Shown piece after piece: positions 19,148 through 53,974 of a stretch of DNA of 64,000 nucleotides. Positions within the stretch are counted from its first letter, which is position 1; each line of letters begins with the position of its first letter. Position numbers and translations under genes: made by a program. This DNA comes from Candidatus Latescibacterota bacterium (GTDB lineage: Bacteria > Latescibacterota > UBA2968 > UBA8231), in contig OZ244561.1 in NCBI GenBank assembly GCA_965217585.1, forward strand, positions 6,944,001 through 7,008,000. Direction: 5' to 3'. A model generated the notes under the pieces. It ran no database searches. It was not told where the DNA came from and was given only the letters and a program-made list of their open reading frames with translations.

Positions 19148-21817
19148 ATGAGACCGACACTCAAGGTATTTTGTGGTCTCCTCGTGGCTCTGGGGAACCT
19201 GGGCGGAGGGCCGGTGCTGGGACAGCCCGACTACGGCACGCGGTTGGGATTGGGCCAAGGCCTGGATCTCAGTTTTGAGCCCCAGGGCCCCGGGGTCATG
19301 CTGGGTGCTCTGGACCCGGCTGTGCGTCGCTGGTACGTGCCCCAGGAGCTTTTTGCGGAATACCAGTGGCGCCAGTGGGAGTACACCAACTATGCCCGCG
19401 ACCCGTACCAGCGCTATGTTAGCACCGCCCTAGAGGGTGATTACTTCTATGATATTTACGGCAATTTCCTAGCGCGCGGCTGGTTGATTTTCAACAACTC
19501 CCAGATCCGTCCCCAGCAGTTCGGGAATTCTCTCTTCAAAGCCACCCGCTTTGACCGGTGGTTCTCAGGGGTGGTGATAGCGGCCGATCACAAGGGCCAA
19601 TATTACTACACCATGACCCTGAGCAACCGGCTCCGCACCATCCTGACCCCCATGGTCTTTGCAAAACCGCGCATGGATGCGGTCCAGTTCGACTTGGCCA
19701 CGGACCGCTACGAAGCTACCCTGCTCTATTCGCGCGTCAGCAGTCCAGGTGGCGTCGATACCGACAACGAGGAACTCCTGCGGACCAACAATACTACCTT
19801 GGTGGGAGGACGCTTGGTCTTTCGAGTGGGGGACTTTGTAAAGGTAGGAGGGCACGTGGTTAATGCCCACCAATCCAATACCCTGTCGGACAAAATGGCG
19901 TGGAATCCCTTTACCGGCGGACTGACCGTGGACCAGAACCGCTCGATCAGTCGAATCCAACTGGTGCTGCGGGACGATTCGCCCGCAGATGGAAGAGGGG
20001 GAGCCGCCTTTTTTGCGGCCGGTTCGGACATCATCATCACCTACCGGGATGGCACAGTCGAAAAAGGCAAGGATATCCGCTTCAAACCCGTTGTAGAGGG
20101 AGGGTTTGTGCAGCAGGGTTTTATTGCGGCCGACGGCAACGAAGAGATCCGCCTACTCTACGACTTCGACAGCCCCGCCTTTCTGGACCGGACCAATTTT
20201 TCCAAAAGCGAAATCGCCGGGGTGGCGTTCCAGTTGCAGATGGGCAACGACTACCAGATCTGGATGACCTCAGACCGGCAGACGGACGACAACGGACAAC
20301 CGGTTCTCCTGCTGGTCGCCCGGGCCGAAGGCAATGTCCAGGATCTCACTAACCTGCAGACTGTGTACTTTGAAAGCGGCCTGCCCACGGCCACCCACAT
20401 TGCGGGGGGTAGCGTGGAAGTGCGCGACCTGCTGGGGTTCGACTTCTACGGCGAATACGACCTGAGCTGGAGCTTCCGCAAGTACCCCAATACCCTCGAA
20501 GAGACGCACAAGACCTCTGCGGGCATCAAAGGCAAGGAGAGCGCGCCAGCCTGGATGGTAAACCTATCTAAGAAGGCATATCCGTGGTTCGCATTCGGCG
20601 AGGTCTACAGCATGGATCCATTTTACAATACCCGAACCTTTGTCACCTCGGGCACGGGCGAGATCGACTACGCCAGCGAACGCCGGAGCGTGATGGAATT
20701 CGTCGAAGACAACGACGATCAGGACAGGATTCCGGATACCGTGCGCTTTGACTGGTTGGCCGGCGACAATACGGTCTTCCCCGGATGGGACCAAAACAAC
20801 GATTTCATCCCGGACTTCAACCAAAACGACAACTTTGAGCGCATAAACGCCGTGCCGGATTACGAAGAGCCCTTTTTTCGCTTCGGGGTAGACCGGCCCG
20901 AATTCCTCTTTGGCGTGGATCTGAATCACAATTTCTGGATTGACCAGTACGAAAACGACGAAGAGCCCGACTACCCCTATCGCAAGGATCACAGGGGGTT
21001 CAACCTCTACGGCGGGGCCCATATCACGCCCGGAGCAAAGCTGGTGATAGGGGCGCTGCGCGAGGAGTTGATCTCGGCGCACAAAAAGAACCACAGCACC
21101 TATGCCTTGCTGAGCCTCGAAGAAGACCTACCCCGCTATGGCCGCATACGGTTTTTCGAGATGATCCAGCGAGTCGAAGACGATATACCCAATCCGCTCC
21201 TGCAGTGGTCGCCGAACAACTCTCTGCAGGGTGGCGAACTCGTCAAGGTAGAGGATCCACTCCTGGCGCGGGACACTTGGGTGAATCACGTCTTCCTAGG
21301 GCACGTCCTGCAAGCGTCCTCTCTGTTTGCCATGAGCAAAATAAACTACGCGCTCTTCCTCCAGCGCACGAGCGAGAGCCAACGCCGGGAACTGGAACTG
21401 GACGCCGCGGATTTCTTCTTCGGGGCGATCAGCAAGGTGAGCTATCGCCATTCCCTGGGCTCCTTCATTTTTGAGCCGCGCTGGAAGAGTGAGTTCACCA
21501 AACAGACCCGCACTTTGTTCACCTTGGAAGAGCGCACCACCCTGAGCGAGTTGGTGGCGGGGCTAGTCGAAACCAATATCCTGCGGGCTACCCGGGTGCA
21601 GCTCGGGCTCGAATATCTGTTTTTTAACGATTTTGATGGAGATGTGCGGGATTTTAACTCGCTGACCTTGGCCCTGCAGTTCACCAATGAATCGAATTAC
21701 CTAGGTTACCGGCTGCGCGCCCTAGTGGGCACGGTGTTGGAACGAAAGGATTTCAAGGAGATGGAGTCCCGAACTACGAATCATTCGTTTATAACCATTT
21801 ATGCGGGTTTGGAATAG
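19148..21817 (+). CDS. Uncharacterised exported protein, putative outer-membrane beta-barrel (cassette family A, copy 1)
   Basis: Signal peptide followed by DYGTRLG, amphipathic beta-strands in the C-terminal part, acidic DNDDQDR/DQNND loops, and the ending FITIYAGLE. Two paralogs are in the window. Confidence 0.7.
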   Translation: MRPTLKVFCGLLVALGNLGGGPVLGQPDYGTRLGLGQGLDLSFEPQGPGVMLGALDPAVRRWYVPQELFAEYQWRQWEYTNYARDPYQRYVSTALEGDYFYDIYGNFLARGWLIFNNSQIRPQQFGNSLFKATRFDRWFSGVVIAADHKGQYYYTMTLSNRLRTILTPMVFAKPRMDAVQFDLATDRYEATLLYSRVSSPGGVDTDNEELLRTNNTTLVGGRLVFRVGDFVKVGGHVVNAHQSNTLSDKMAWNPFTGGLTVDQNRSISRIQLVLRDDSPADGRGGAAFFAAGSDIIITYRDGTVEKGKDIRFKPVVEGGFVQQGFIAADGNEEIRLLYDFDSPAFLDRTNFSKSEIAGVAFQLQMGNDYQIWMTSDRQTDDNGQPVLLLVARAEGNVQDLTNLQTVYFESGLPTATHIAGGSVEVRDLLGFDFYGEYDLSWSFRKYPNTLEETHKTSAGIKGKESAPAWMVNLSKKAYPWFAFGEVYSMDPFYNTRTFVTSGTGEIDYASERRSVMEFVEDNDDQDRIPDTVRFDWLAGDNTVFPGWDQNNDFIPDFNQNDNFERINAVPDYEEPFFRFGVDRPEFLFGVDLNHNFWIDQYENDEEPDYPYRKDHRGFNLYGGAHITPGAKLVIGALREELISAHKKNHSTYALLSLEEDLPRYGRIRFFEMIQRVEDDIPNPLLQWSPNNSLQGGELVKVEDPLLARDTWVNHVFLGHVLQASSLFAMSKINYALFLQRTSESQRRELELDAADFFFGAISKVSYRHSLGSFIFEPRWKSEFTKQTRTLFTLEERTTLSELVAGLVETNILRATRVQLGLEYLFFNDFDGDVRDFNSLTLALQFTNESNYLGYRLRALVGTVLERKDFKEMESRTTNHSFITIYAGLE

Positions 21818-21832
21818 ATTTGAGGCACAAAC

Positions 21833-23857
21833 TTGAATCCAAAAGGCAACGGAGGCAAACTTGCCTTGGAGGCCGCTGGTATTGGCCTACTGGCCCTATT
21901 TCTCCGGTTGGTCCACCTCCAGCAGCAGACCCAGAATCCTCTCTTCGAGGTGCCCGTGGCCGCGGCTCGGACCTTTGTAGCCCTGGCCCGGGAACTGCTG
22001 CGCCAGGGATCGTTGCCGCCGGATGCGCCGCCTTCCCTGTACCCCTTTTTTCTAGGGGGGCTCTTTTGGCTTTGCGGCGAAGCCTACGGGGCAGCCCGCT
22101 TGGTCCAGGCGCTGCTGGGAGCGGTCAACTGCGTGCTGTTGTGGCGCTTGGGATACGCGCTCTTTTCGTCGCGCCCCATAGCCCTTGGTACCGGGCTAGC
22201 AGCCGCTCTGTACGGGCCTTTGTTCTTCTTGGGCGGGTCTCTGCTGCCGCCCGTGCTAGCCGTTTTTTTTACTCTACTCTCCCTGCACGCCCTGCTGTGG
22301 GCCATGTCCGGAGAGTCGGTTTGGCGCTTCGGGATGCCGGGGCTGCTGCTGGGCCTAGCCGCTTTGAGCGGGGCTCACGTGCTGCTCTTTGCTCTAGGTG
22401 TCTTGCTCTGGCTCTGGTTGCCGGAAAGGAGGGGTTTGGGAGCTGGAGCCGGGCTGGTTCTGGGGCTGGCGGTGATCCTGCTGCCGGTTTTTCTGTGGAG
22501 CGGATGGGCGGGGGAAATGCTCTACCCTTCTTTCGGACTTGCGGCGCAAAACCTTTACCTTTTCTGGCAAGGGCAGGAGTTTTTGCCCGACCTGGATCCG
22601 TACTACGGACGCGAGTTTTCGGGGCTACTGGCCGCCTTGATGTGGAAAGGCTGGATAGGGTTCCCCTTTGGCCTTGTAGCCCCCTTGGCTCTGGTGGGCC
22701 TGGGCTTTCGACTCAGGTCGCCGGAACGCTCGCAGGCGGAAACCCCTATTCTCCTCTTTGTCGTCACTTGCTGTGTGGAAACCCTGTTTTTCGAGTGTAC
22801 CTCCGGCACCAGGGCAGTGCTGGTGCCGGGGTTCCTGCTCTTTGCCGCCGTCGGTATGGGGGAATGGAAGCGGGCCTCTTGGCCGCAGCGGGGCGCGGGC
22901 GCAGTTGCTCTGGTACTACTGGGCGTGGGACTAAACCGGGGTCAGATGGAAAAGACGGCGCAACCGCTCCAGCACCATTGGTTGGGGTACGCCTATGAAC
23001 AGCTAGATATGAAGGTCAATGCGGTCCGGGAGTACGAAAAAGCGATTTTCCTAGGAATAGAGCGCATGGACACTTATCTCGCCCTGGCCGGGCTCTACAG
23101 CGCCGGAGGGAAATACGATCGAGCCATCAGAGTGTACCGCGACCTGCTGCAGCGCTGGCCCGGAGAGTCCGCAGTGCGGCTGGCACTGGGGGACCACTAC
23201 GCGAAGGCGGGGCTCGCAGCCCAAGCCTCCACCGTGTATCGGGCGCTGCGGGAGGAGGGCGGCGATTCTGCGGTGTTGCTGCCGCGGCTGGCCCAGGCCC
23301 GTCTGGGCAGCCAGGATGCTCCGGGAGCCATTGAGGCCTACCGAGAATTGCTCAAAATCCAGCCGGAGAATGATCGGGTGCGCTTCCAACTGGGCATGCT
23401 CTACACCAAAGAAGGACGGATTCAGGAGGCCCAGGCGGCCTACCGTCCGCTGCTGCAGAATGCCGCCTGGGTGGCCGTAGCCGGTCCCCGCTTGGCGGAC
23501 CTACTGATGCGGACGCGGCAAGAGGCCGAGTCCGAGCAGGTGCTCATACAGACCTTGAGAGCTGCGCCCGACTCGGCACCGGCCCTAGCCCTGCTGGGCA
23601 AGTTGCTCTACGACCGGGGCCGCCACGAGGAATCCCTGCTGTATTTCGAACGCTTGCGTCCACTGCAGGCAGAGGATTTCCGCGTGTACTTTTATTTGAC
23701 CAAGCTCTACCAGGAGTTGGGCAGAGAGCGAGAAGCAGAGGAGGCCATGGACCTCTACCTCGAGTACCGTCGGCAAAAACACCGGGCGGATATTCAGCGA
23801 CACGCGCAAGAAGAAAGCGCCTTACTGCTAAAAAATATCTTAGGAGAAATCCATTGA
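21833..23857 (+). CDS. GT39/PMT-like (GT-C fold) membrane protein fused to C-terminal TPR repeats
   Basis: PSLYPFFLG..ARLVQALLG..AALYGPL pattern in a hydrophobic N-half, and a TPR-like C-half (LGYAY, LALAGLY, FQLGMLY, LLGKLLY). Confidence 0.65.
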   Translation: MNPKGNGGKLALEAAGIGLLALFLRLVHLQQQTQNPLFEVPVAAARTFVALARELLRQGSLPPDAPPSLYPFFLGGLFWLCGEAYGAARLVQALLGAVNCVLLWRLGYALFSSRPIALGTGLAAALYGPLFFLGGSLLPPVLAVFFTLLSLHALLWAMSGESVWRFGMPGLLLGLAALSGAHVLLFALGVLLWLWLPERRGLGAGAGLVLGLAVILLPVFLWSGWAGEMLYPSFGLAAQNLYLFWQGQEFLPDLDPYYGREFSGLLAALMWKGWIGFPFGLVAPLALVGLGFRLRSPERSQAETPILLFVVTCCVETLFFECTSGTRAVLVPGFLLFAAVGMGEWKRASWPQRGAGAVALVLLGVGLNRGQMEKTAQPLQHHWLGYAYEQLDMKVNAVREYEKAIFLGIERMDTYLALAGLYSAGGKYDRAIRVYRDLLQRWPGESAVRLALGDHYAKAGLAAQASTVYRALREEGGDSAVLLPRLAQARLGSQDAPGAIEAYRELLKIQPENDRVRFQLGMLYTKEGRIQEAQAAYRPLLQNAAWVAVAGPRLADLLMRTRQEAESEQVLIQTLRAAPDSAPALALLGKLLYDRGRHEESLLYFERLRPLQAEDFRVYFYLTKLYQELGREREAEEAMDLYLEYRRQKHRADIQRHAQEESALLLKNILGEIH

Positions 23858-25929
23858 AGAGGCGCGTACTATACTCGCTGGGAATGGCTGGGCTGCTTCT
23901 AGGATCGGATACCCTGGGCCTTGAGGTCCTGCGCTTTGGCCAGGGGGAACAGGTCACTTGGGAGGGGGAGATCTCGGGGGCCGAGGGCATTTCAATCATC
24001 GCACCGGAATACCGCACCGCGCTGGACCCGAATGTCACGGAAATTGGGGTTGCACCGGGCGACCTGATCGAGTTTGAAAATCCCGATTTCCCCAGGAGCA
24101 TCATGCCCCGCCGGGTCCAGAAGGAGCAAAATCTGGCCGTGGATGTGGTCGAGCGCGGCGGCAGCATCAGTGTCCCCAATGCGATCGACATTGTCAGGGT
24201 TCAGTTGGCGACTATCCTAGCGGGAGTCATTTCACCGGATCCCACGGGCAATGCCTTTGAGCGCAAGGGGAAGAAGATCTTGGGTACCCTGATCGTCTTG
24301 GATCTGGGGGCTCGGGTTGGGGTCAATCGGGTCCGCTTTTTCCCGCGCAACACCCTGTTCCCCTCCCCTACGACTCCCTTCCAAGACGACTTTCTAAAGA
24401 ATTTCGACCTCCTGGTCAACGACGGGCTGGTGCTGACCGATGCCGGTCTACCGATCTGGGAGACGTACCACAGCCGCCTCAATAATACCGAACCCATCAC
24501 AGTGATCGACGTCGATCCGCCGCGCTACCTCCGCTTTATCCGCCTGCGGGCTACCTCTGCGGTTCCCTTCGAGATTGAGAAGCTGCAGGTCTTTGGCGAA
24601 GGGTTTTTTCCCGCGGCCCAGTATCTCTCGCCCGTAATCGACATCGGCCTTCCGGCCAACTGGGGCCGGTTGCGCTGGGAACTGGAGGCCCTAGGCAATA
24701 AGAAAAAGGGGAATGTACAGATCCGCACCCGTACCGGTGCGGATGCGACCCCCTTTGTCTATAACCGCAAGCGAGTCGGCAAAGCCGATGCCGAGGAGAT
24801 TCCCTTTTCGGTAGATGATCCATCCGAACCGCTCTCCCGGCGAGACTTTCTGAAGCTGCGGCCCAAGGGCAACCCGGACGATGAATGGGAGCGTGGCTCG
24901 GTAGAGGAAGACTTGGAGAACTGGAGTCCGTGGACTCCACCCTATTCCATAGAGGCAGCCACTAGCGAGGAGGGCACGCGGATCCTTTCGCCCGGCCCCA
25001 AGCGCTATTTCCAGTTCCGCGCGGATTTTGTGAGCGAGGACCTGGAGTCGAGCTATGTGCTAAAAAATCTGTCCTTCGACTACACTACTCCGGCTCTGGC
25101 CGATGAACTGGTAGCCGAGATCTTCCCCCGAGAAGTGTCTGCAGCCACGGATATTTCCTTTGTGTACACCGTGCGCACATCAATGAACAGCGTCAATCTG
25201 CAGGGTTTCAACGGCCTAGAGATATTCACCCAAGGGCAGCCCGAGCGCATCGAGCGCATCGAGATCATCGACGGCAACAACCAGACCACAGTAGACCATA
25301 TCTTTGCAACCCAGGATGCGGTCACCGATGAAGGCGAGGTCGGCATCACCTCCTTTACCCACGAGGGATTCACCGTGCGTTTCCCTCACATACAGGAGGA
25401 CAATACCCTCCTGAAGATCTACTTTGTCAGCCGAATTTTGACCTACAGCAGTGCTTTTGCAGGACGAGCCTTGATCGTGGGAGGGGATACCTTTCAGAAT
25501 GTGGTCTCCGGCGACGCGGCCACCTTGGACGAGGCGGATTCTCCCTTTGATTCGGGAGTTGTGGTCCTGAGTCCAGCCGTAGCCAGAGCGGACCTGATCG
25601 GGGATTTCGACTTGGACGCTCCGCTACTAACCCCGAACGGCGATGGAGTGAATGACAGGTTAGAGCTGCGCTGTGAGGTCCTGACGGTGGTGGGCCAGGC
25701 CCACATCACCATAGAAGTCCTCGATCTCAGCGGCCGACGGGTGCGCTCCCTCTTCGACCACAAAGGAGAGAACGGGGTGTACGACAGGGCCCGTTTTGCT
25801 GAGTTGGGATGGGATGGCAGGGACGTGCAGGGTCATTTGGTGCCCCCCGGACTGTACCTGGTCCGGCTTGGGGTGGACGGCGATGCGCGCTCCAGTACTG
25901 CCTTGCGTACCCTAGGGATTACTTATTGA
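23854..25929 (+). CDS. Secreted protein with discoidin-like domain and FlgD-Ig/type-B CTD-like C-terminus (cassette family B, copy 1)
   Basis: Signal peptide, DLGARVGVNRVRFFPRN, WSPWT, SPGPKRYFQ, LTPNGDGVND and WDGRD..GHLVPPGLY. The start overlaps the upstream stop. Confidence 0.75.
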   Translation: MKRRVLYSLGMAGLLLGSDTLGLEVLRFGQGEQVTWEGEISGAEGISIIAPEYRTALDPNVTEIGVAPGDLIEFENPDFPRSIMPRRVQKEQNLAVDVVERGGSISVPNAIDIVRVQLATILAGVISPDPTGNAFERKGKKILGTLIVLDLGARVGVNRVRFFPRNTLFPSPTTPFQDDFLKNFDLLVNDGLVLTDAGLPIWETYHSRLNNTEPITVIDVDPPRYLRFIRLRATSAVPFEIEKLQVFGEGFFPAAQYLSPVIDIGLPANWGRLRWELEALGNKKKGNVQIRTRTGADATPFVYNRKRVGKADAEEIPFSVDDPSEPLSRRDFLKLRPKGNPDDEWERGSVEEDLENWSPWTPPYSIEAATSEEGTRILSPGPKRYFQFRADFVSEDLESSYVLKNLSFDYTTPALADELVAEIFPREVSAATDISFVYTVRTSMNSVNLQGFNGLEIFTQGQPERIERIEIIDGNNQTTVDHIFATQDAVTDEGEVGITSFTHEGFTVRFPHIQEDNTLLKIYFVSRILTYSSAFAGRALIVGGDTFQNVVSGDAATLDEADSPFDSGVVVLSPAVARADLIGDFDLDAPLLTPNGDGVNDRLELRCEVLTVVGQAHITIEVLDLSGRRVRSLFDHKGENGVYDRARFAELGWDGRDVQGHLVPPGLYLVRLGVDGDARSSTALRTLGITY

Positions 25930-31600: not shown

Positions 31601-31772
31601 GCGGTGGCTGGAGGCGCAGGGGGTAGGAGGACGGCATCAATTCACCTGGGACGGTCGGGATCACAGTGGCAACCTGGTAGCCCCTGGGCTCTACCTGTGT
31701 CAGATTGAGGTGGAGGCGGATGCGGATATCAGTGGGCGCAGGCGCACCCACCTGATCGCCGTGGCTTATTGA
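28641..31772 (+). CDS. Large secreted protein with discoidin-like domains, internal repeats and FlgD-Ig/type-B CTD-like C-terminus (cassette family C, copy 1)
   Basis: Signal peptide, DGDPHTFWEP..WWIEVDLG (F5/8-like), WSSWS, PNPFTPNGDGVND and WDGRD..PGLY, ending IAVAY. Confidence 0.75.
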   Translation: MREQKQYNGRRAWAVSFVCLLGHLNPVVAQQGYSIVGGQIVVQQRQHWKNWKTPSHLVRIDRAGGVSARTLRSVFNVLEDKTFGRPVQIDSKKPRIMNIDSTLKLDALGNPLTNTSGQQIFDYLVRPGVSRAGSNPHLAANIADGDPHTFWEPDPDDPLEEWWIEVDLGRVVPLERLRLRFVEEDMGDPFLRFVLLLAAKQNLFLEEGDQLAFESFLPFEGFNTTRREFTFDADRVSPELPPDPLAAADKTLGWGDVPISLTSTAGEGPDPSWTGRLVETVRIVITDARRGRAEQIDEDEWESLPRAERGDIVHFLQDAGYEEPVDAATYASLPQDRQGRKEYYRRERPRLAEVEAWGWGDDIGQSLVEGGGSIHFSNPVTIPGMLFDGNYGTSVNVQTISPREPGLNVLTLDLGGSVWLDHILIVGSTPPRGYAIRGSSGERNAQGDLQWEPITSLERETNVHGGNFRLLVDRLEPARPISFIEMVTLPIRLNATEWVGSMWPRLFNIMLFSKGPPAAVVLESDQIELPGLFTLGAVNWEADAPPGSEVEIRTRSGNQLLERIRYFDKTGNEKTAKEYAETASFFKGPSDTSLVVGPGWSSWSQKYRTPGEIATSPGLRRFVQIQASLLSHDRQAVPVLKKITVDLQPPLAQSLGAEVWPERTVAGLLDTFEVFVQPRFLEAPLNLRNLGFDEVLLHSEPALDLRLVDAALGTEEELEQDQPILLFAQPHAEGLESADGQVMQILNQSDSLWVRFPQIVHSAEELTRLYYRAVHPGEEVPTSLGGELLTVHSHAQLPLEERGAVRYFRKVQSGEEVRLEEVGPDTYEGLPPTEQGPIRYFRKVAGVGDQSLFNAQGDTLNAVQHRGLRRNERGWVVGTGRLLRLRFSAVVYLQSTLLKVAVRNSGTESTWQEAQGRDVTVLRPAETLAIGIDGAGPTITDVGIAPNPFTPNGDGVNDAAQIQFALFKIYAARPVVVRLYSLDGRQVRWLEAQGVGGRHQFTWDGRDHSGNLVAPGLYLCQIEVEADADISGRRRTHLIAVAY

Positions 31773-34930: not shown

Positions 34931-34961
34931 GCTTTATCCCCGAGAACCGATGCTGATTTGC

Positions 34962-42027: not shown

Positions 42028-42031
42028 ACGG

Positions 42032-45339: not shown

Positions 45340-48300
45340 TCAATAAGCCACAGCTACTACGAGGGATAGGGTCTTTCCTTTAGCTTCCCCCGAATCTGCT
45401 CCCAGATGGATCTGGCAGATGTAGAGCCCTGGTGGAAGGATGCTGCCTCCTTTGTCCACTCCTGTCCATCTGAACACATGTGGTCCTCCATGGGCCATCT
45501 TGACGTCCTCCCACATCAGTCGGCCATCCAGGGCATAGATCCGCATCCGGGCCTCCCGCTCCGCGGTCACTCTGAATACGGAGAAGGCAACTTCTAGGAC
45601 ATCGTTCACCCCGTCTCCATTGGGGGTGAAGGGGTTAGGGGAGAGCACCAACTCGTCGATGATCTTCCCGCCTACGGGCACGGAAATGGTCAGGCTACTA
45701 CCTGAAGTCAGGATCGTAGCATCCCCGGGATCCACCTGCTGCCACAGAAAGTCGCCGGCATCCGAGATTTGATCGGCTTTCCGCACAAAGGCCTTCAGGG
45801 TGGTCCCGTTCAAGAAGACAGTGGAGGCAAAGCGCACCTGAACCAGGCGTCCGGTGCCGATGACTGTCCCCCGCACTGATCGTTCGAGTGCGTTATACGT
45901 GTCGGGCGTCAGAGAGTCCCCCCTGGCATCGAACGAAAATTCGGCTCCAGCCCCGACCAGCTTGCGGAAATAGCGGACCGGCCCCTGCTTCTCCGGATCG
46001 AGTTCATCGTAGGTGAACTGATTGGCGACCTCCTCGAATCTCAGGTTCCCCACACTATCGGTGGTCTTCTTAAAGAAAAGGCTCCTGCCTCGTTCCGAGT
46101 CGGGGAGAAGCCCGTACGCGGCTTCTGTAAGGATATCCCCATCGTGCCCCACCGGCACTTCGTCGCCTTCAGAAGTGACGCGGTTGTAGACCTTGGGAGC
46201 GAGAGCGACAGGCACGCTCTGCATGGAGGCGGGTAAACGAACCCACAGAGAGTCCCCTCCTTCCCGAAATACATCCAATGCGTCGCCCGAGGCGCTGAGG
46301 AACCCACCTTCCGAGACACGCTGAAAATTCTGGTAGACCTGCCCCTCCCGGAATTCCTCTTCGGTTCCGGTGCTCACACTCAGCAGGTGGAGATCGACCC
46401 CTTCAGGGGCACTCAGCAGCATCTCGTCGAACCCGGCTGTCTGGGCGGAGAAAGGTGCATCGATGAAGGTTGGACGCAGATAGATCTCGAAGGTATCCAG
46501 CCGACCAGGAATGGTCTCCTGAGGCCATACCTCTCCCACCACGCGCTGCGCCACTGGATCAAACAGCTCTACCTCAATCGAGCCAATCGAGGCGGTTTTC
46601 CAGCGGTCTTCGCTGGTAAATTTCACTTGCAGCTGCATGAAATTCCGCAGCCCTGGAGAGGTCACCCGCTCACCCGAACGGACATACTTCCGACTCCATG
46701 GGCTCCAACCTCCTCCGAGGGCAAAAGAGGTATCCACCGGGCCCTGGTACTTGCTGAACAGCTCCTCCCACTCCTTTGGGGTTTTCTCGAATCCCGAGGC
46801 GTCAAAGTAGCGAATCTGCTCTACCAGCAGGTCCCCCGTCCGGGTGCGGATCTCCACCGAGGTTCCCTCTGGCTGGTCCTCCGGGCTCCACCTGACCGCG
46901 CCCAGACTGCGCGGGCCAGGCATGCGGATGAAATCAGAGGTCATCTCAGCCTCTGTGATATAGCCCTCGGAAAAAAACTGGAGCTCAGAGACAGTGCCCG
47001 CCAGTACTCTGTATCCCCCTCCAACGTCAAGATTAGTCGTCAAGAGCCTCATACCCAGGTACCGGATCCGGAGCGGAGGATCGTAGAAGTCTGCGAAATG
47101 CCTGAACCGATCTACTTCGTTATTTTCACGCTCAACAGGGCTGACCCTGCGCCACTTGAGTTCCCCCCTAGCATCCCGTGCTCCGTCCGAGGCCTGGACA
47201 ATATAGCCGTCTACGGATCCCGCCAGACGCATTGCGTCCAGCCACACGAGGGCACCCATATCGACGGTCATAATCCCTACTTCCGAGAGAGGAGACCAGA
47301 CCTGCCACCTGAAGTTCGTACTCGCGTCCCCGTCGAATCCATTGCTGGCTATGTACGGCCCCGTCAGGTCCACACTGCCACCCTTTCCCAACACCCCCGG
47401 GGCGAGGTTGTCACCCCAGCCCCAGACCTCGACTTCACTCAACCGGGGCCGTTCGCGGATATAGTAATCCTTCCTCCCCTGCCGTTCTGGACCAAGGCCT
47501 TCGTAGGTCGACTGGTCCACCGGTTCCTCAAAACCGGTCTCATCCTGGATGTAGTAGAGGATATCCCCCTGCTCCTCGGACGGAAGCACTTCCCACTCTT
47601 CTTTAGAGAGCTGCCGCGCCCTGAAGCGTTTGCTATCGGTGACCAGGATCCGGATCGTCTCGGCTATCCGGCCTGTCCATTTGGGATCCGAAGCGGACTG
47701 CGCGAACCTGGGCTCTTCCTCGGTGCTGAGGACGAAGGTCCGCTGTTCGGTATTAGGCGCTACTGTGCCGCCGACCAGACTGAAATCGAGCTTGTTATCC
47801 GCGTCCTCTATAAACTCCTGTTCAGGAGAGACCAGCACGCGGAACTGGCGAAAGGGATCTCCCGTCTCTTCGTCGACAAAGTGCAGTACGATCTTTTCGA
47901 CGACCACTACCCGGCCCAGGTCAATCTCCACCCACCAGTCGGTGCTGTTAGCGGCCAGATCGGGTTCCCAGTAGGTGGTCGGATTCCCGTCGATAATGTT
48001 CGGGGCATCATCCGGGTTTGATCCCACCCGGCTGATCCCTGTCTGGACGAAGTAGTCGTAGGCCGGAAAATTCTCTTTGTCTTTTGTCTCGAACTTCCGG
48101 GTGGAGCGCACTCCTGTGCTGACGTTTTTCAGCAACAGGGTCACCTCTTTCGCACCACTCATCGAGGTGTCGGTGACGGTGTAGAGTTGGCCGCCAAGGA
48201 CAATCTGGGTCTCGTTCCCTGGGAACCTCCGGAAGTCCGAATTCAGGTATTTTCCTACCTTCTGCTCTTCGAGCTTCAGGTCCCCGTCTCGAGTTCTTAC

Positions 48301-48639
48301 GAGGGTACGGCCTATGCTCATAATCGCCCTGTCGTCCCTCCTGATATTCGGCTGTTCGATAGCCCGTCTGAACGTCTCCCGATCCTCCTCGATTAAATTG
48401 TATATTCGCCGGAAGGCATGGGGCCGGACCACGCCATCGGAGGTGATATCTAGGACGTGTCTGGGCATGGTCCAGTGCTCCCAGTGGCCCTGCGTATCGA
48501 CCATGATCTTCGAATCGGTAACCCGGTGGCCTTGGGCAGGCTGTGCGCGAACGATACAGACTCCACCCACCAGTGCTCCAAAACACAGAGCGCCCACCAG
48601 CCTCAGGACGGTCCAATGGCTGTAACATTTTCTTTCCAT
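45340..48639 (-). CDS. Cassette family C, copy 2 (secreted; discoidin-like domains, repeats and FlgD-Ig/type-B CTD)
   Basis: ATG 48639 with GGAGGA. Motifs are DGNPTTYWEP..WWVEIDLG, WSPWS and PNPFTPNGDGVND, ending VAVAY. Confidence 0.75.
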   Translation of the reverse strand: MERKCYSHWTVLRLVGALCFGALVGGVCIVRAQPAQGHRVTDSKIMVDTQGHWEHWTMPRHVLDITSDGVVRPHAFRRIYNLIEEDRETFRRAIEQPNIRRDDRAIMSIGRTLVRTRDGDLKLEEQKVGKYLNSDFRRFPGNETQIVLGGQLYTVTDTSMSGAKEVTLLLKNVSTGVRSTRKFETKDKENFPAYDYFVQTGISRVGSNPDDAPNIIDGNPTTYWEPDLAANSTDWWVEIDLGRVVVVEKIVLHFVDEETGDPFRQFRVLVSPEQEFIEDADNKLDFSLVGGTVAPNTEQRTFVLSTEEEPRFAQSASDPKWTGRIAETIRILVTDSKRFRARQLSKEEWEVLPSEEQGDILYYIQDETGFEEPVDQSTYEGLGPERQGRKDYYIRERPRLSEVEVWGWGDNLAPGVLGKGGSVDLTGPYIASNGFDGDASTNFRWQVWSPLSEVGIMTVDMGALVWLDAMRLAGSVDGYIVQASDGARDARGELKWRRVSPVERENNEVDRFRHFADFYDPPLRIRYLGMRLLTTNLDVGGGYRVLAGTVSELQFFSEGYITEAEMTSDFIRMPGPRSLGAVRWSPEDQPEGTSVEIRTRTGDLLVEQIRYFDASGFEKTPKEWEELFSKYQGPVDTSFALGGGWSPWSRKYVRSGERVTSPGLRNFMQLQVKFTSEDRWKTASIGSIEVELFDPVAQRVVGEVWPQETIPGRLDTFEIYLRPTFIDAPFSAQTAGFDEMLLSAPEGVDLHLLSVSTGTEEEFREGQVYQNFQRVSEGGFLSASGDALDVFREGGDSLWVRLPASMQSVPVALAPKVYNRVTSEGDEVPVGHDGDILTEAAYGLLPDSERGRSLFFKKTTDSVGNLRFEEVANQFTYDELDPEKQGPVRYFRKLVGAGAEFSFDARGDSLTPDTYNALERSVRGTVIGTGRLVQVRFASTVFLNGTTLKAFVRKADQISDAGDFLWQQVDPGDATILTSGSSLTISVPVGGKIIDELVLSPNPFTPNGDGVNDVLEVAFSVFRVTAEREARMRIYALDGRLMWEDVKMAHGGPHVFRWTGVDKGGSILPPGLYICQIHLGADSGEAKGKTLSLVVAVAY

Positions 48640-48671: not shown

Positions 48672-50738
48672 TCAGTAGACGACCGCCAGAGGTCGCACCT
48701 GGGTGTCGGCACGGTTGTCTCCTTCCACGGAAACTTGGAGCAGGTAGATCCCCGGCGGGACCCGATGTCCATCGTTGTCGGCTCCATCCCACCCATGCAG
48801 ATAACGGCCGCTTTGCTGCAACCCGTCGTGCAGGGTGTGAAGCACTCTGCCGGCCAAGTCGTAGACCCGGACCACCACCCTGCCTGTTTTCGTCAGCGTG
48901 AGAACATTGTAGACCACGGAGATCTGGTCGTTGATTCCGTCCCCGTTCGGGGTAAAGGGATTTGGAGTCGCCTCGAAGGCATCGATCAGACGCCCTTTGA
49001 GGACGGAAGGGCTGAAGACCGTGATGCCGGACAGGTTCGGGTCATCCCCTTCCCCCAGATCGGCGGTATTTCCAGGAGCGATGTTCTGGAAGGCTCCCGA
49101 CTCCGTGGACAGGGATGCCCGCCCCTTGAATTCCGTGCTGAAGACCAGCACCGAGGCGCGAAAGGTGATCTTGAGCAGGTCATCGTTCTCCTGGATGAGC
49201 GGAAAACGGACGCCAAACCTGTTGTCTTCAACCGAGGTGATCCAGAAGGGCCCCTCTCCCAGGGTATCGAGATCAGTGAAGGTATGCTCTGCCACCAAGC
49301 CCCCCTGGGAGTCCAGGATCTCGATCCGTTCCACCGCTTCCACGCGGAGGGGCGTGGAGACTTCAAATGTGTCGAACCCGCGCAGCCCCGGGGTCTCTAT
49401 CTTGGGGCTCACAGCATAGGTGAACAACGTGGAGGTGGAGGCCTCCACCTCGCGGGGAAAAATCTCTGCCACCAGCTCCTCGGACAGAGGCGGCGACAGG
49501 TATTCCAAGGATATGCGGTCCAGAACCCGGGCAGACTCTAAGTCTTCGCTCAGCACCTGGACCCTGAACTGTATGTACCGTCGGGGGCCGGGCGAGAGGA
49601 TTGAGGTCCCGGCTTCTGTGCTTCCCTCGGGGGTATAGGGGGAACTCCAGGGGCTCCAGTTCTCCAGGTCGTTCTTGACCGAACCATGCGTCCACTCTAC
49701 GTCGGCAGCGTCCGCCATGGGAAGTTCGCTGTATTCCTCCCGGGTCAATGGCTGCCCGCGGTTGACTATAGAAGTCGGTATCTCCGGGGCATCTCTCTTG
49801 TCTGCCAGCTTTCGAGTGTAGACAAACGGCGTTTCATCGTTTCCGGTACGGGTCGAGATGAGCAGATGGGACTTGCTTGAGTCGCCTACTGCACGTTCGA
49901 CCCACTGAATGTTGCCCCATGAGGCGAATCCCAGGTCGAACACGTCCGAGATGTACTGGGCAGTAGGGAGAAAGCCCGTCCCGTAGACCTCGATCTCGTC
50001 AATCTCGAAATTGATGGGTGTGGCCGAGCGCAGCCGGACGGATCGGATATACTGCGGCGGGTCGAGGACCACATCGACCACGGGCTCCCTATTGTCCTTG
50101 TTCTCCGCCAGGAGTTCCCAGATGGGGTTGCCCCCTCTGTTGAGATTGAGCCCGTCGTTTACGAAGAGCTCGAAGGCTCTCATGAAGTCGTTTTGGAAGG
50201 GCGTTGAGGGTGCCGGGTGTACAGTGTTGCGGGGATAGAAGCGGATTCGGTTGACCCCGAATCGGGCACCGAGATCAATTATGATCAGCATGCCCAAGGC
50301 GTTAAAGTTCTTCCGTTCGAAAGCCAGAAGCTCTCCCCCTCTATCCTCGCTGAGGAGTTCCTCCAAGGCCAATTCGAGGTCCGGGAGCCTGAAATTGTCG
50401 GTGAAATCCAGGACGGTGGGGGCGCGGATATTCCCTCCTCGCTCTTTCGTGCTGACAGCTATGTTCTCCCCCTCGCTTAACTGCCTGGGGACGAGGCTTT
50501 CCCGGTAATCCGGGTGGTTGAAGTCAATCAGCCCTCCCGGCGTGTTCCCGATCAGAATCTCGTTGGGGTCCAGGGCGCGGTACTCCGGATCGATGGTGAT
50601 CAAGTCCGCACCTGACCCATCCCACCTGATCGAACCCTCTTTCCCGAGACTAAGTGTCTCCAGGGCGATCGCTGAATCAAGTATACATACCACGGTAACC
50701 CATCCGCAGAAAAGAGGCAGGAGGTTCCTCTTGGCCAT
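48672..50738 (-). CDS. Cassette family B, copy 2 (secreted; discoidin-like domain and FlgD-Ig/type-B CTD)
   Basis: ATG 50738 with AGGAGGT. Motifs are DLGARFGVNRIRFYPRN, DLENWSPWS, SPGPRRYIQ and PNPFTPNGDGIND. Confidence 0.75.
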   Translation of the reverse strand: MAKRNLLPLFCGWVTVVCILDSAIALETLSLGKEGSIRWDGSGADLITIDPEYRALDPNEILIGNTPGGLIDFNHPDYRESLVPRQLSEGENIAVSTKERGGNIRAPTVLDFTDNFRLPDLELALEELLSEDRGGELLAFERKNFNALGMLIIIDLGARFGVNRIRFYPRNTVHPAPSTPFQNDFMRAFELFVNDGLNLNRGGNPIWELLAENKDNREPVVDVVLDPPQYIRSVRLRSATPINFEIDEIEVYGTGFLPTAQYISDVFDLGFASWGNIQWVERAVGDSSKSHLLISTRTGNDETPFVYTRKLADKRDAPEIPTSIVNRGQPLTREEYSELPMADAADVEWTHGSVKNDLENWSPWSSPYTPEGSTEAGTSILSPGPRRYIQFRVQVLSEDLESARVLDRISLEYLSPPLSEELVAEIFPREVEASTSTLFTYAVSPKIETPGLRGFDTFEVSTPLRVEAVERIEILDSQGGLVAEHTFTDLDTLGEGPFWITSVEDNRFGVRFPLIQENDDLLKITFRASVLVFSTEFKGRASLSTESGAFQNIAPGNTADLGEGDDPNLSGITVFSPSVLKGRLIDAFEATPNPFTPNGDGINDQISVVYNVLTLTKTGRVVVRVYDLAGRVLHTLHDGLQQSGRYLHGWDGADNDGHRVPPGIYLLQVSVEGDNRADTQVRPLAVVY

Positions 50739-50843: not shown

Positions 50844-52976
50844 TCAATAAACCACGGCTATAGTACCTACCTTCTCTTCTCTCCTTTCGTCGGCTTCCAA
50901 GCTAATCCGGTAAATGTAGATCCCGGGAGATACCCTCTCTTCCCTGTCGTCTCGCCCGTCCCATGTCTTCAAATAAGCACCGGTTTTAGCAGCCTCGTCC
51001 GTGAGTTCACGGACCAATTGTCCGCTCAGGTCGTAGATCTTCATCTGTATGGATCGTTGTACGGCTACCTCCCGCACCTTGAAGGACAAGGATAGCTCAT
51101 CGTTGATACCATCCCCGTTCGGCGTGAAGGGATTGGGAGAGGTCTCCACGAAGACGAGCAGATCTCCCCCCACAACCGTCCGGACAGACAGCCCATCTCC
51201 TGCATAGCGGAACGTGGCGTTGCCCGGCTCGACCTGCTGTTTCAGCCGGGACGGATCGTCGCTGTTGAACACCCATCCCTTGAACTCGGCGCCGAAACGC
51301 AGCACCGCCGCGTCGAAACTCACCTCCACCTGCTTGCGGCTGTCCTCCTCTGCATCTTGCAGCTTGGGTAGTGCCACGATGATCCGGTCGGACAGGATCT
51401 CAGGAGGAAAAGCCTCCAGGTCGATCTCAGGACCGTTTACCTTGACAGATCGGACCGTATCCGCAGTGGTGTAGGTGAGGATCTCGAGCCGGTCGAATCC
51501 TGCATCTCCCTCCTGAAACTCCGGCTTGACAACATAGGTGAAGGTCTGCGGCTCAAAGGAGACGACATCGATCGGCCAGATCTCCCCCACGATTTGGGAG
51601 GCGGAGGGAGACTGGGCGAATTGAAGCCACAGGGCCTGCAGTTGGGGGGCCTCATTCCGGGTCGAGTAGAGGGCGACGTGGAACTGGAGGTAGCGGCTGG
51701 GACTCGGCGACAGCAGAGGAGTCCCGTCCTTCCATGCGTCGGCCGCTCTGGTGAGGTCGCGCAGGCCGGCTTCGAAGTCGTAGGGTGGCGACCAGAAACT
51801 CCAGTTGTCCGTGTCGTAGATGGGGGGTTGACGTGTGTTGACCGGAAGCAGCTTGTATGTGCCGAAAGTGATCTCTTCCAGGTCGCCCGTGATAGAGTTC
51901 TTTTTCCAGAAGATATCAGGGTCCGGGTCGTTGCCTGTACGGGTCCTGATCTCCACGCCGGTGTCGGGAGGGAACTCTCCGGCCCAGCGGATCTTGCCCC
52001 AGCTAACCGGGTGCCCGAAGTCCAGGATATGGGTGAGGTAAACCGCCTTCCTGACATACCCCTCTCCGTAGACTTCGAACTCGGCGATCTCCCAGTCGCG
52101 GAGCGGATTGAAGGCCCGGATGGCCACCCAGCGCTCGTGCCGCAGAGGGAAGCGAAAGTCCACGACCACGTCCAGGTTCTCTGTAGTCTGCCTGAGGATG
52201 GTGAACGCCGGATCGTTGGTCGACCTGTACAGCCTAGTGCTCTTGAACGCCCGTTTCCCCGGAGGAGGTGTGCCTGACGATACCAGCGGGGCGCTATTGT
52301 CGGCCACCCCGATCTCATACCACTCGAGGAAGTTGGCGGAAAAACTCTCGGTCCCAAACGCGTTCCGGTCCGGCTTGGGATCGGCTATCTGCTCGATCAG
52401 CAGGGCGTCGTCGTCGCCCAGACGGGGAAAGAACCGAATCCGGTTGATCGGGAGGTTCGCCCCGAAGTCCACGATTATGTTCTCCCGCCATGGCCGCGCA
52501 GGGCACGACGTACCTTGGCACGAAGCGATCTCGCCCAACCCGATCCCCAAGGCACCTAAGGGATTCTGGACCATGGTCCGGAAGGTCGCCGTCTTGGGAT
52601 CGCCATCAAAGGACAGACGGATGCTCTGGAGCTGGCCTTCCCGATAGCCCAGGGGTTCACTCGAGGTAATCTGCCCGTCGGCCAAGTCGAGGCGGCGGGC
52701 CAGGTTCTCGTTCGGATCGATCCACACCGGCCGGATCGCGCCGTTGCTGTAGTCGATGAGGGTATCGACTCCGGTCTCTCGTGGAGCTATGCCCACGGCC
52801 ACCGAATCGATCGGCTGGCCGCCTGCGTCGAACACGACATAGAAGCCAGGGGCTTCCGACAAAGCAGCCGGCCAGAGATTCCCTGTATCCCCACCCAGGA
52901 TGTACTCCGACCTTCTGGCCTTTGCCGGCGATGTCAGTACCAGAATCAGCAGGAAGACGCAGAGAGGTACACGCAA
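50844..52976 (-). CDS. Cassette family D, copy 2 (secreted; discoidin-like domain and FlgD-Ig/type-B CTD)
   Basis: Probable TTG start before the hydrophobic VPLCVFLLILVLTSPAKA (start uncertain). Motifs are LPINRIRFFPR, WEIAEFEVYG, WSFWS and PNPFTPNGDGIND. Confidence 0.72.
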   Translation of the reverse strand: MRVPLCVFLLILVLTSPAKARRSEYILGGDTGNLWPAALSEAPGFYVVFDAGGQPIDSVAVGIAPRETGVDTLIDYSNGAIRPVWIDPNENLARRLDLADGQITSSEPLGYREGQLQSIRLSFDGDPKTATFRTMVQNPLGALGIGLGEIASCQGTSCPARPWRENIIVDFGANLPINRIRFFPRLGDDDALLIEQIADPKPDRNAFGTESFSANFLEWYEIGVADNSAPLVSSGTPPPGKRAFKSTRLYRSTNDPAFTILRQTTENLDVVVDFRFPLRHERWVAIRAFNPLRDWEIAEFEVYGEGYVRKAVYLTHILDFGHPVSWGKIRWAGEFPPDTGVEIRTRTGNDPDPDIFWKKNSITGDLEEITFGTYKLLPVNTRQPPIYDTDNWSFWSPPYDFEAGLRDLTRAADAWKDGTPLLSPSPSRYLQFHVALYSTRNEAPQLQALWLQFAQSPSASQIVGEIWPIDVVSFEPQTFTYVVKPEFQEGDAGFDRLEILTYTTADTVRSVKVNGPEIDLEAFPPEILSDRIIVALPKLQDAEEDSRKQVEVSFDAAVLRFGAEFKGWVFNSDDPSRLKQQVEPGNATFRYAGDGLSVRTVVGGDLLVFVETSPNPFTPNGDGINDELSLSFKVREVAVQRSIQMKIYDLSGQLVRELTDEAAKTGAYLKTWDGRDDREERVSPGIYIYRISLEADERREEKVGTIAVVY

Positions 52977-53084: not shown

Positions 53085-53104
53085 CTCACAACTGCGCCTG
53101 ACGG

Positions 53105-53974
53105 TTACTTGAACTGGGACTTGATGCGGGCCCAGGTATTCGTCCCGACCGCTGTCTCGATCTTCGGGTCCATCTCCATCAGCACGAAGTCGTTCACAGC
53201 CTGGCAGCACGAAGGCTCCCCCGCCATAGACCAATACACATCGCGATCGTCCCCCTCATCCACATCGACGACGTTTGGGGTGATGTGGATGGTCTCTCCT
53301 TCCTCCAGGTCGAATTCTACCACCCCGTCTTCGGACGCAGCCTCGTCCGTTGGCATGGTTTCGACGGGTCTGATCGCCACCTCGTAGTAGTAGGTGCTCT
53401 CGCCGAACTGATCCCCTGTGAAGCTCCATCCGAAGTCGAGCCACCTGCTCCCGGGCGCCATCCAGGTATAGCCTATGGGTTCCAGAGGCCTGAGAAATAT
53501 AAACGTATCTTTGAATGGAGGGACCGCAAACTTGTAACTGAGATTGGTCGCTAAGCCCTCGACGGTATCCATGAGGGGATTCACCTCGATTTCTATGGCA
53601 TCATCGTGGAAGAATTTGCTGGCATCCGCCCGGTCTGTATTGTGTATGTTGTCGAACACCTCGATGGCGAAGTAGAGCATGTTGGCGTTTTCGTTCCAGC
53701 CAACCCGGTGCCGTATATTAATGTTAGTGGCATCGAACCCGCCGCGGCTCAATCCCTTCAACTGGAACGAGTCGTAGAGTTTGTCAGTGAGAATCGTGTA
53801 AGGACTCGTCGGCACGATCTCCCAATCAGTCAGGTCCCCGTCTATCGTCGGAACGGCATCATCGGGAAACTGTACCGCGAAGAAAGTCTCTCCCGGCGGT
53901 TGGTGTGCAGCGCTGATGCCGACAAATCCCAACACGAAACCCACAACTGTAAGCAGGATAGTTACTTTCCTCAT
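53105..53974 (-). CDS. Secreted CBM9/DOMON-like protein with C-terminal TAVGTNTWARIKSQFK tail (cassette family E, copy 2)
   Basis: ATG 53974 with AGGAGG, signal peptide, PTIDGDLTDW, VGWNE..LYFAIEVFD, DDAIEI and GESTYYYE. Paralog of 33983-34930. Confidence 0.68.
   Translation of the reverse strand: MRKVTILLTVVGFVLGFVGISAAHQPPGETFFAVQFPDDAVPTIDGDLTDWEIVPTSPYTILTDKLYDSFQLKGLSRGGFDATNINIRHRVGWNENANMLYFAIEVFDNIHNTDRADASKFFHDDAIEIEVNPLMDTVEGLATNLSYKFAVPPFKDTFIFLRPLEPIGYTWMAPGSRWLDFGWSFTGDQFGESTYYYEVAIRPVETMPTDEAASEDGVVEFDLEEGETIHITPNVVDVDEGDDRDVYWSMAGEPSCCQAVNDFVLMEMDPKIETAVGTNTWARIKSQFK

Follow-up and report, generated by a model that had tools for sequence, protein, structure and literature searches.

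A gene cassette repeated through a Latescibacterota genome, combining predicted outer-membrane barrels of a new family with proteins bearing type IX secretion-like tails

Introduction

What is built at the cell surface by the two gene cassettes that occupy opposite strands of a 64,000-nucleotide stretch of contig OZ244561.1 (positions 6,944,001 to 7,008,000; hereafter the window), from the genome of an uncultured member of the Latescibacterota? The cassettes bring together genes for large putative outer-membrane barrels (A), secreted proteins (B, C and D) and a smaller secreted protein (E) with a number of accessory genes, and an earlier note on this sequence had proposed that they encode a surface machine for capture and uptake. 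Bacteria of this phylum are widespread, uncultured and regarded as polymer degraders, and we know of no description of polymer handling at their outer membrane. A 2015 genomic analysis of the Latescibacterota, in the part of it available to us, assumed non-specific porins (PMC4454575).

The answer that we favour, and to which we give about an even chance of being correct, is that the cassette is an amplified, lineage-wide envelope module in which cargo of a type IX secretion system (T9SS) would be held by a cognate barrel of a novel kind, with binding proteins displayed on the cell surface. Literature searches returned no publication describing the cassette and none on type IX secretion in Latescibacterota, in agreement with the statement in the earlier note that no named system of this composition was recognized.

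A module repeated through the genome

Open reading frame (ORF) calling on the window found ORFs at all of the coordinates given in the earlier note, 17 genes, and its account of the gene sets, their order and their clear paralogy is borne out. The plus strand carries P-A1-G-B1-A2-C1-D1-E1, starting with P at 17217, and the minus strand carries E2-D2-B2-C2-A3, followed by two DUF6785 genes, a tetratricopeptide repeat (TPR) gene and a CRTAC1-type gene (Table 1). Intergenic gaps in the plus-strand cassette are mostly 6-15 nt, G and B1 overlap by 4 nt, and 131 nt separate D1 from E1. In an all-against-all blastp comparison (all E <= 1e-57) the barrels share 58% (A1/A3, over 880 aa), 59% (A1/A2) and 52% (A2/A3) identity, and the remaining paralogues 45% (B1/B2), 37% (C1/C2), 42% (D1/D2) and 35% (E1/E2). 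Signal peptides of the cassette proteins were assessed by eye from the N-termini.

Both of the copies that had been recognized are real, but the pair is only a local view. The host genome is a single contig of 7.32 Mb, 94.6% complete, and in a census that used crude ORF calling and family assignment by phmmer it contains 80 A, 57 B, 58 C, 50 D and 33 E ORFs, with 41 for the SurA-like protein P, 19 for the GT-C/TPR protein G, 78 for DUF6785 proteins and 58 for CRTAC1-type proteins; 248 ORFs have a tail like that of B, C and D. The 80 A genes fall into 48 clusters, 40 of which also contain at least one of B, C, D or E, and both cassettes of the window are copies of one module repeated about 48 times in the genome. 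A gene for B, C or D lies within 6 kb of 60 of the 80 A genes, as compared with a random mean of 12.1 and a maximum of 24 in 500 trials, and most members of the other families are also close by, with 29 of the 33 E, 32 of the 41 P, 51 of the 57 B, 45 of the 58 C and 36 of the 50 D genes within 12 kb of an A. Linkage at this distance is looser for DUF6785 (36/78), CRTAC1 (24/58) and TPR (20/35) genes, all of which have extra copies in the window that are distant from any A. By this crude census the core families A, B, C, D, E and P account for about 320 genes, which form one repeated module that therefore represents a major unannotated part of the surface biology of this cell.

Three protein families and a C-terminal tail

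The five families counted in the earlier note reduce to three. B2 and D2 share 30.5% identity over 590 aa (blastp, E 7e-69), B1 and D2 share 26% over 735 aa, and C has its C-terminal 165-180 aa and a central stretch in common with B and D. Judged by these alignments B, C and D are one superfamily with a common core and C-terminal tail, and the cassette is therefore composed of three unrelated families: A, B/C/D and E. The suggestion that some subunits are lectin-like is upheld by discoidin matches in C and D; F5_F8_type_C is above the Pfam cut-off in C2 (46.5 bits) and below it in C1 and D1, and the domain is present in 70% of the members of the Atlas cluster nearest to the D1 core.

The last ~100 aa of B, C and D match CHU_C and FlgD_ig (Pfam) and conserve the motifs PNPFTPNGDGIND, WDGxD and PPGLY and a terminal AVAY, a signature that we take, from the CHU_C match and the motifs, to be that of type-B type IX secretion tails. 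CHU_C exceeds its cut-off of 27 in D1 (35.0), D2 (45.8), C2 (31.8) and B2 (32.4), and the type-A model TIGR04183 is barely above its cut-off in B2 and D2. When a B/D profile was compared with solved structures only the tail gave matches, to FlgD (3osv, E 5e-8) and PorU (6za2, E 0.043).

Components of a T9SS are encoded elsewhere in the genome, with SprA (483.5 bits, cut-off 200) and PorU (627.5 bits, cut-off 420) recognized above cut-off and a PorV-like gene directly adjoining PorU at 153.8 bits, below the cut-off of 250. Of the 80 A genes, 45 have a B, C or D gene directly upstream and 20 have another A there. For the 45 pairs of barrel and upstream tail the two sets of distances are correlated (Mantel r 0.40, rising to 0.59 within B and 0.61 within C, with none of 2000 permutations as high); barrels and their upstream cargo duplicate and diverge together, a correlation that is not in itself evidence of contact. 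A precedent for such pairing comes from the accessible portion of one study, in which the type-B cargo proteins PG1035 and SprB are bound by PorP and SprF respectively (PMC9143113), and from the part of another that was available, in which the genes of type-B substrates are described as linked to those of their cognate PorP/SprF-like shuttles (PMC12618676).

The A barrel

None of the three A proteins of the window matches a Pfam or NCBIfam family, A1 having no Pfam match even at E <= 10, and an A profile found no matches among the sequences of solved structures. The AlphaFold2 model of A1, computed from a 51-sequence alignment, has a predicted local distance difference test score (pLDDT) of 78.6 and a predicted template modelling score (pTM) of 0.78, and in it residues 142-887 form about 26 long antiparallel strands. 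A small beta domain occupies about 269-375 as an insertion, a loop rich in Asp and Asn (about 500-614) is ill-ordered in the model yet highly conserved, and an N-terminal stretch of 70 aa is conserved with pLDDT below 50. Foldseek, and VIA-align independently of it, matched the model exclusively to outer-membrane barrels, including MtrB (6r2q_B, E 5e-8), SlpA, LptD (8h1r, 5iv9) and FimD, and by VIA-align FhaC (Z 14.1 over 250 aa) and SprA (Z 10.1 over 404 aa). Template modelling (TM) scores are low, no single barrel family is prominent, and TonB-dependent receptors appear among the matches only at the level of generic barrels. Because the matches are confined to barrels, with low TM-scores and no family standing out, A is predicted to be a large outer-membrane beta-barrel of a new family, and the earlier assignment of A as an outer-membrane barrel is thus supported by the model. 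Clustered at 50% identity, the family comprises 1135 representatives among 1.84 billion proteins. A proteins are 889-896 aa long and poor in cysteine; there is none in mature A1 or A2 (one each, in the signal peptide), A3 lacks it altogether, and among 54 close paralogues 47 have none in the last 800 aa and seven have one.

About 20 further A paralogues in the genome form a separate barrel subfamily with 27-38% identity to A1 and occur as pairs or triplets.

The E protein and its C-terminal tag

The model of E1 (pLDDT 86.7, pTM 0.86) finds by Foldseek the CBM9 structure 1i82_A (E 2e-9, TM 0.74 on target) and 7nwn (E 6e-9), with further matches to the DOMON-like subunits EbdC (2ivf_C, E 3e-5) and NxrC (7b04). 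In its predicted structure E is thus a stand-alone secreted protein of CBM9 fold, as the CBM9-like binder of the earlier note implied. The relationship is scarcely visible to profiles: CBM9_1 (PF06452) does not match E1 and gives 14.8 bits with E2 (cut-off 23.4), and an E profile matched 7nwn alone among solved-structure sequences, at E 1.8. The motif IDGxxxDW, which is typical of CBM9, is present in the E alignment.

In a 38-sequence alignment the residue that follows the predicted signal-peptide cleavage site (AxA|H) is an invariant His, numbered 2 since the first alignment row begins one residue ahead of it, and most of the 33 genomic paralogues show the same mature N-terminal His by eye. 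Also conserved are D23, W29, D93, E189, D232 and D266, the tryptophans W78, W162 and W251 in addition to W29, and a near-invariant His in a DxDHSGG motif. The N-terminal His brought to mind a copper protein like the lytic polysaccharide monooxygenases (LPMOs), which we do not claim here, the fold being that of CBM9/DOMON and not of an LPMO. On such a fold the His may serve as a metal or haem ligand, in which case E would function as a redox partner and not simply as a binder.

E proteins end in a conserved tag, TAVExxSWGRIKxxF. A loose form of it, W[GAS]x[IVLM]K within the last 28 aa, is found in 92 ORFs of the genome as compared with 19.1 expected from its overall rate; the carriers are 29 E proteins and 63 others, mostly small and secreted-looking, one of them a Cache-domain protein at window positions 2831-3463. 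An A gene is found within 12 kb of 46 of the 92 (random mean 16.5) but of only 19 of the 63 carriers outside the E family, and the tag is thus a genome-wide C-terminal signal rather than one private to the cassettes. Possibly it serves for sorting or docking, as a signal that has yet to be described. Neither Pfam nor NCBIfam has a model for the A family, the E family or the tag.

There is a weak hint that E1 has its own transcript from its own promoter. Contigs from four metatranscriptome libraries of two studies, one labelled sponge metagenome, match the whole plus-strand cassette at >=95%, and in all four a separate contig covers E1, starting at 33918-33929 and ending between 34653 and 34956; in runs X15 and X16 of the first study it ends at 34944-34956, immediately before a strong hairpin terminator. 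Its depths are 153, 121, 42 and 43 as against about 0-20 in the other bins of the cassette (~2-50x), where contigs are no proof of transcription, start or level. The extent of this contig agrees with the terminator and with a promoter-like site in the D1-E1 gap (Table 1), while an automatic sigma-70 scan of the plus-strand cassette gave 6 sites against 5.5 expected, which is no enrichment, and did not list that site.

A second E-like subfamily, of 10 copies inside cassettes, has no Pfam match and shares the N-terminal His and C-terminal tag, and a lipoprotein of about 250 aa, also without a Pfam match, forms a small cassette family of 14 copies.

Conservation across the phylum

The earlier note had proposed co-localization of the families in other genomes as a check, and there the gene set is both conserved and co-located. 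We collected 72 related loci as the best A1 matches from species genomes; they are mostly orthologues of the G-containing cassette, often from related genomes, and therefore are not independent samples. Almost all are labelled as Latescibacterota or carry older labels such as Gemmatimonadetes. Their gene order is U-P-C-A-G-B-D-A-E, where U is a DUF6785 gene, or P-A-G-B-A-C as in the window, and B/C/D genes are present in 71 of them, G in 64, E in 48 and P in 47. In a sample of 151 Latescibacterota genomes, 95 carry A and 92 carry E, and the two have a nearly identical pattern over families: both occur in 63/63 genomes of the family to which the window belongs and in 13/13 of family f10, and in 0/30 of f2 and 0/19 of f3. 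Ten genomes from nine other families were also examined, taking as a locus a 20-kb stretch that includes A or the whole of a shorter contig. A tail-bearing ORF accompanies A in 8 of 19 of these loci, with one more recognized via Pfam, and in 16 of 18 loci of a second set, usually directly upstream of A.

A proposed mechanism

The type IX-type tails point to a mechanism more specific than a general surface complex, that of T9SS cargo with a cognate barrel. B, C and D would be exported by Sec and then carried across the outer membrane by the T9SS, and the A barrel encoded directly after them would receive and hold them, taking the role that the small PorP/SprF barrels play for type-B cargo in Bacteroidota; the genome itself appears to be without PorP/SprF. 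The SurA-like lipoprotein P could act as chaperone of the barrels, the GT-C/TPR enzyme G may modify a component in the periplasm, and E would contribute a further glycan-binding surface of CBM9 type. With many diverged copies there would be many binding specificities, capturing polymers or particles. The interaction between A and the tail is proposed from gene order, co-divergence and the PorP/SprF precedent.

Several observations weigh against this proposal. CHU_C is below its cut-off of 27 in B1 (19.2) and C1 (23.2), and none of the six tails reaches the cut-off of 35 set for the type-B model TIGR04131, the best score being 27.1. Whole-genome searches found no match to PorP/SprF (PF11751, TIGR03519) or GldM, and for GldK only partial matches to the FGE-sulfatase domain, none of them above the cut-off; these are weak negatives, control genomes being silent too for PorP/SprF and GldM, and the T9SS of this phylum is thus only partly recognized. 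Duplication of whole cassettes could by itself produce correlated divergence of barrel and tail. The ~20 distant A paralogues of the genome stand in tandem without B/C/D genes, and in family f7 (genome G003) no B/C/D or tail-bearing protein was detected at seven of eight A loci, so that the barrel can evidently work without them. The f7 loci contain A, DUF6785, a fused membrane protein with major facilitator superfamily (MFS), Spermine_synth and TPR domains, DUF4159, a PhyH dioxygenase, a sulfatase and a tag-bearing protein; the last of these is E-like, adjoins A and matches CBM9_1 at 27.1 bits, above the Pfam cut-off. A and an E-like protein may therefore be the older core, with B/C/D not strictly needed by the barrel.

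The f7 loci also count in favour of the function that the earlier note had in mind, in which a polymer caught at the surface by E and B/C/D is fed into A as an import channel, and DUF6785 proteins carry the products across the inner membrane, as a TonB-independent analogue of SusC/SusD. We consider this unlikely. In its favour, f7 retains A, DUF6785 and the CBM9-positive protein without B/C/D and beside a sulfatase and PhyH; GH42-like and GH141-like genes adjoin A in f10; sulfatase and GFO/IDH/MocA oxidoreductase genes recurrently adjoin the cassettes of the present genome; a barrel of ~26 strands would be wide enough for oligomers; and the DUF6785 and A families have expanded to similar size (78 and 80). 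Proximity cuts both ways, since a DUF6785 gene lies within 12 kb of 39 of the 80 A genes (random mean 16.2, maximum 30) but within 6 kb of only 12 (random mean 8.8), and 42 of the 78 DUF6785 genes are distant from any A. A shows no plug, TonB-box or TonB-dependent-receptor match, Plug and TonB_dep_Rec giving nothing in Pfam at E <= 10, and no energy source for import is evident. Pfam also found no glycoside hydrolases or lyases inside the two cassettes of the window, and the 14 largest accessory families across the 40 clusters likewise include no glycoside hydrolase (GH) or polysaccharide lyase (PL), a scan that left out 162 singleton ORFs. Import through the barrel, which the SusC/SusD analogy requires, is conceivable; a plug or TonB match and a SusD-like gene are wanting in the cassettes, as are recurrent GH genes in the larger accessory families.

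The accompanying view of DUF6785 as an inner-membrane transporter is not supported, its basis being the loose linkage and an Atlas likeness to peptide/OPT transporters of 0.77-0.79, a lead only, since it is below 0.9. The proteins match DUF6785 and DUF6784 only (Pfam, E <= 10), their profile has no match among solved-structure sequences, and a literature search found no account naming DUF6785; to our knowledge no function is known for DUF6785/DUF6784 proteins. Assignment to the oligopeptide transporters (OPT, PF03169) is kept as no more than a lead, since the OPT model misses the DUF6785 genes and its single weak match in the genome falls in an unrelated ORF. We are doubtful of the broader possibility that the A barrels define a new class of TonB-independent nutrient-acquisition locus, a Latescibacterota equivalent of polysaccharide utilization loci, with one giant barrel both anchoring T9SS-delivered lectins and a CBM9-fold protein and conducting substrate to DUF6785 permeases. 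Five DUF6785 genes lie in the window, at 3600-5567, 37643-39625, 40039-42027, 57112-57723 and 62430-63992, the fourth spanning profile positions 1-133 alone and so appearing truncated; CRTAC1-type genes, amplified like DUF6785, are at 5564-7390, 9607-11901 and 34998-36689.

The mechanics of cargo and barrel that we prefer could also serve another purpose, not nutrient acquisition but a variable lectin-like coat for attachment to host matrix or particles, or for variation against phages or grazers, which seems to us improbable. In known systems discoidin domains and type-B cargo, SprB for one, act as adhesins, according to the part of a study available to us (PMC9143113), but modules of CBM9 and discoidin type are just as characteristic of the capture of polysaccharides. 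In favour of a coat, near-identical sequence is present in RNA libraries labelled sponge metagenome, and the copies are strongly diverged (35-58% identity); no phase-variation elements were noticed, although invertible and repeat elements were not searched for, and one insertion sequence is next to E2. Accessory cassette genes encode modification enzymes (GT-C/TPR, GDSL/TPR and Spermine_synth/TPR) and not hydrolases, whereas the sulfatase, GH-like and oxidoreductase neighbours point to catabolism.

The position of G directly after A in the dominant gene order, and its presence in 64 of the 72 related loci, raise the further alternative that enzyme and barrel form a synthase-dependent route for export of a glycoconjugate or exopolysaccharide, like those of BcsC, PgaA, PelB and AlgE, with B to E as accessories. 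TPR proteins do recur in the cassettes, and the VIA-align matches of A include PgaA (4y25, Z 12.5), PelBC (Z 12.0), AlgE (Z 11.5) and BcsC (Z 11.4), but unrelated barrels reach Z 12-14 as well. G genes number only 19 to the 80 of A, with G within 6 kb of only 11 of the 80, and Pfam finds no cytoplasmic synthase in the cassette. PMT_2 enzymes, moreover, glycosylate periplasmic acceptors rather than polymerize. We regard export as very improbable.

Features of the window and neighbouring genes

The features of both cassettes are collected in Table 1. Upstream of the plus-strand cassette a GHL10 gene is found at window positions 14359-15900, 1.3 kb before P, and at 7-2779 there are two tandem genes for proteins with long N-terminal regions and AhpC/TSA-type thioredoxin-fold domains, a similar 695-aa protein being found next to other cassettes of the genome. 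An insertion sequence (IS)-type transposase gene (HTH_21, rve; 54512-55414) lies ~540 nt past the E2 start, on the outer edge of the minus-strand cassette. Farther on, at 57804-59810, is a 668-aa ORF without a Pfam match, from a four-member family whose other members flank cassettes elsewhere in the genome. P is one of 41 paralogues.

Table 1. Features of the two cassettes (window coordinates unless marked genome) and examples of related loci
Feature	Coordinates	Strand	Evidence and remarks
P: SurA-like parvulin peptidyl-prolyl isomerase lipoprotein	17217..18971	+	First gene of plus-strand cassette; Rotamase 42.3 bits, Rotamase_2 40.4 bits, SurA_N_3 weak (Pfam)
A1: predicted outer-membrane beta-barrel, new family, 889 aa	19148..21817	+	Predicted structure
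G: glycosyltransferase C (GT-C) type (PMT_2) membrane glycosyltransferase with C-terminal TPR domain	21833..23857	+	PMT_2 27.1 bits, many TPR families (Pfam)
B1: secreted B/C/D-superfamily protein, type-B-like T9SS C-terminal domain	23854..25929	+	C-terminal domain motifs PNPFTPNGDGVND...WDGxD...PPGLY; CHU_C 19.2 bits, below cut-off
A2: second predicted barrel of plus-strand cassette	25944..28634	+	59% identity to A1; starts 14 nt past B1
C1: large B/C/D-superfamily protein, discoidin-type domain, putative T9SS tail	28641..31772	+	F5_F8_type_C 26.0, FlgD_ig 27.3, CHU_C 23.2 bits; terminus ...IAVAY
D1: B/C/D-superfamily protein, discoidin-type domain, putative T9SS tail	31785..33851	+	CHU_C 35.0, FlgD_ig 33.3 bits (above cut-off); F5_F8_type_C 22.6 bits (below)
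Promoter-like site in D1-E1 gap: TTGACA, 18 nt, TATATAAT	33870..33901	+	By eye
E1: secreted protein of predicted CBM9 fold, His first after signal peptide, C-terminal tag ...SWGRIKAQF	33983..34930	+	Model, alignment
Hairpin terminator, strong, between convergent E1 and CRTAC1 genes	34962..34990	.	13-bp stem, 10 G-C pairs, then T run
R: CRTAC1-type FG-GAP/UnbV_ASPIC lipoprotein, loosely linked module	34998..36689	-	FG-GAP_3 184.7 bits, UnbV_ASPIC 74.5 bits
T: TPR lipoprotein	36689..37615	-	TPR families (Pfam); N-terminal lipobox-like ...SGC, by eye
U: DUF6785/DUF6784 polytopic membrane protein	37643..39625	-	DUF6785 403.9 bits, DUF6784 87.5 bits
U: second DUF6785/DUF6784 membrane protein	40039..42027	-	DUF6785 411.3 bits
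A3: predicted barrel of minus-strand cassette, after C2	42511..45186	-	58% identity to A1
C2: B/C/D-superfamily protein, discoidin domain, putative T9SS tail	45340..48639	-	F5_F8_type_C 46.5 and CHU_C 31.8 bits, both above cut-off
B2: B/C/D-superfamily protein	48672..50738	-	FlgD_ig 44.3, CHU_C 32.4 bits; TIGR04183 24.0 bits against cut-off 23
D2: B/C/D-superfamily protein	50844..52976	-	CHU_C 45.8 bits, FlgD_ig 31.9 bits
E2: paralogue of E1, predicted CBM9 fold, N-terminal His, C-terminal tag ...TWARIKSQFK	53105..53974	-	35% identity to E1; CBM9_1 14.8 bits, below cut-off
Distant A tandem arrays, examples	genome 242200-252079, 3752202-3760726, 4894521-4905024, 7034310-7042853		Without B/C/D
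Recurring small cassette families, examples	genome 2443819-2444640, 3392320-3393300		

Comparison with known systems

If the barrel does replace PorP/SprF, then the type-B branch of the T9SS would go back further and be more diverse than the Bacteroidota model suggests, and would work without the GldK disulfide track; if the barrel imports as well, the cassettes would be a second, independent invention of the strategy of many loci with one barrel each that is familiar from SusC/D.

The closest likeness is to the SprB-SprF pair of Flavobacterium johnsoniae and the PG1035-PorP pair of Porphyromonas gingivalis, with which the cassettes share a cargo tail of ~100 aa with a CHU_C match and FTPNGDGIND-type motifs, a barrel gene that follows the cargo gene, many cognate pairs per genome, and the presence of SprA and PorU genes. 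The differences are nevertheless substantial. A is 889-896 aa long with ~26 predicted strands, as compared with barrels of ~300 aa (profile lengths 273 and 292), carries an inserted domain and an Asp-rich loop, and is matched by neither profile; being three times as long, unmatched and without cysteine, it is by its sequence not a member of PorP/SprF. The twin cysteines through which SprF bonds to GldK, as described in the portion of the relevant study available to us (PMC12635249), are thus also lacking from A. GldK and GldM are not recognized in the host genome, and the cassettes encode, in addition, a protein of predicted CBM9 fold, a SurA-like chaperone and a GT-C/TPR enzyme. This one genome has about 48 loci, whereas 12 type-B substrates are given for F. 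johnsoniae in the part of the source that we could consult (PMC12618676).

Like the SusC/SusD loci of Bacteroidota, the cassettes form dozens of diverged paralogous loci, each with one large barrel and surface proteins of glycan-binding type, and catabolic genes flank some of them. Unlike those loci, they have a barrel without the TonB-dependent plug or receptor domain, no SusD/RagB-type family in any of the 17 cassette proteins (Pfam), putative T9SS cargo in place of lipoproteins as binding proteins, no recurrent glycoside hydrolases in the larger accessory families, and no regulator evident in the cassettes.

MtrB (with MtrA/MtrC) and LptD (with LptE), 26-strand barrels that enclose a partner, resemble A in strand number and are its best Foldseek matches, but with TM-scores of 0.17-0.33, no likeness in sequence and neither a cytochrome nor an LptE-like partner present, the resemblance is one of general barrel shape only. 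E, finally, shares its predicted fold with the CBM9 modules of xylanases, such as CBM9-2 of Thermotoga maritima Xyn10A (1i82), and with the DOMON-like EbdC (2ivf_C) and NxrC (7b04), and differs from the xylanase modules in being a stand-alone protein and not part of an enzyme, in its additional ~100 aa, in the invariant His at the start of the mature protein and in its conserved C-terminal tag.

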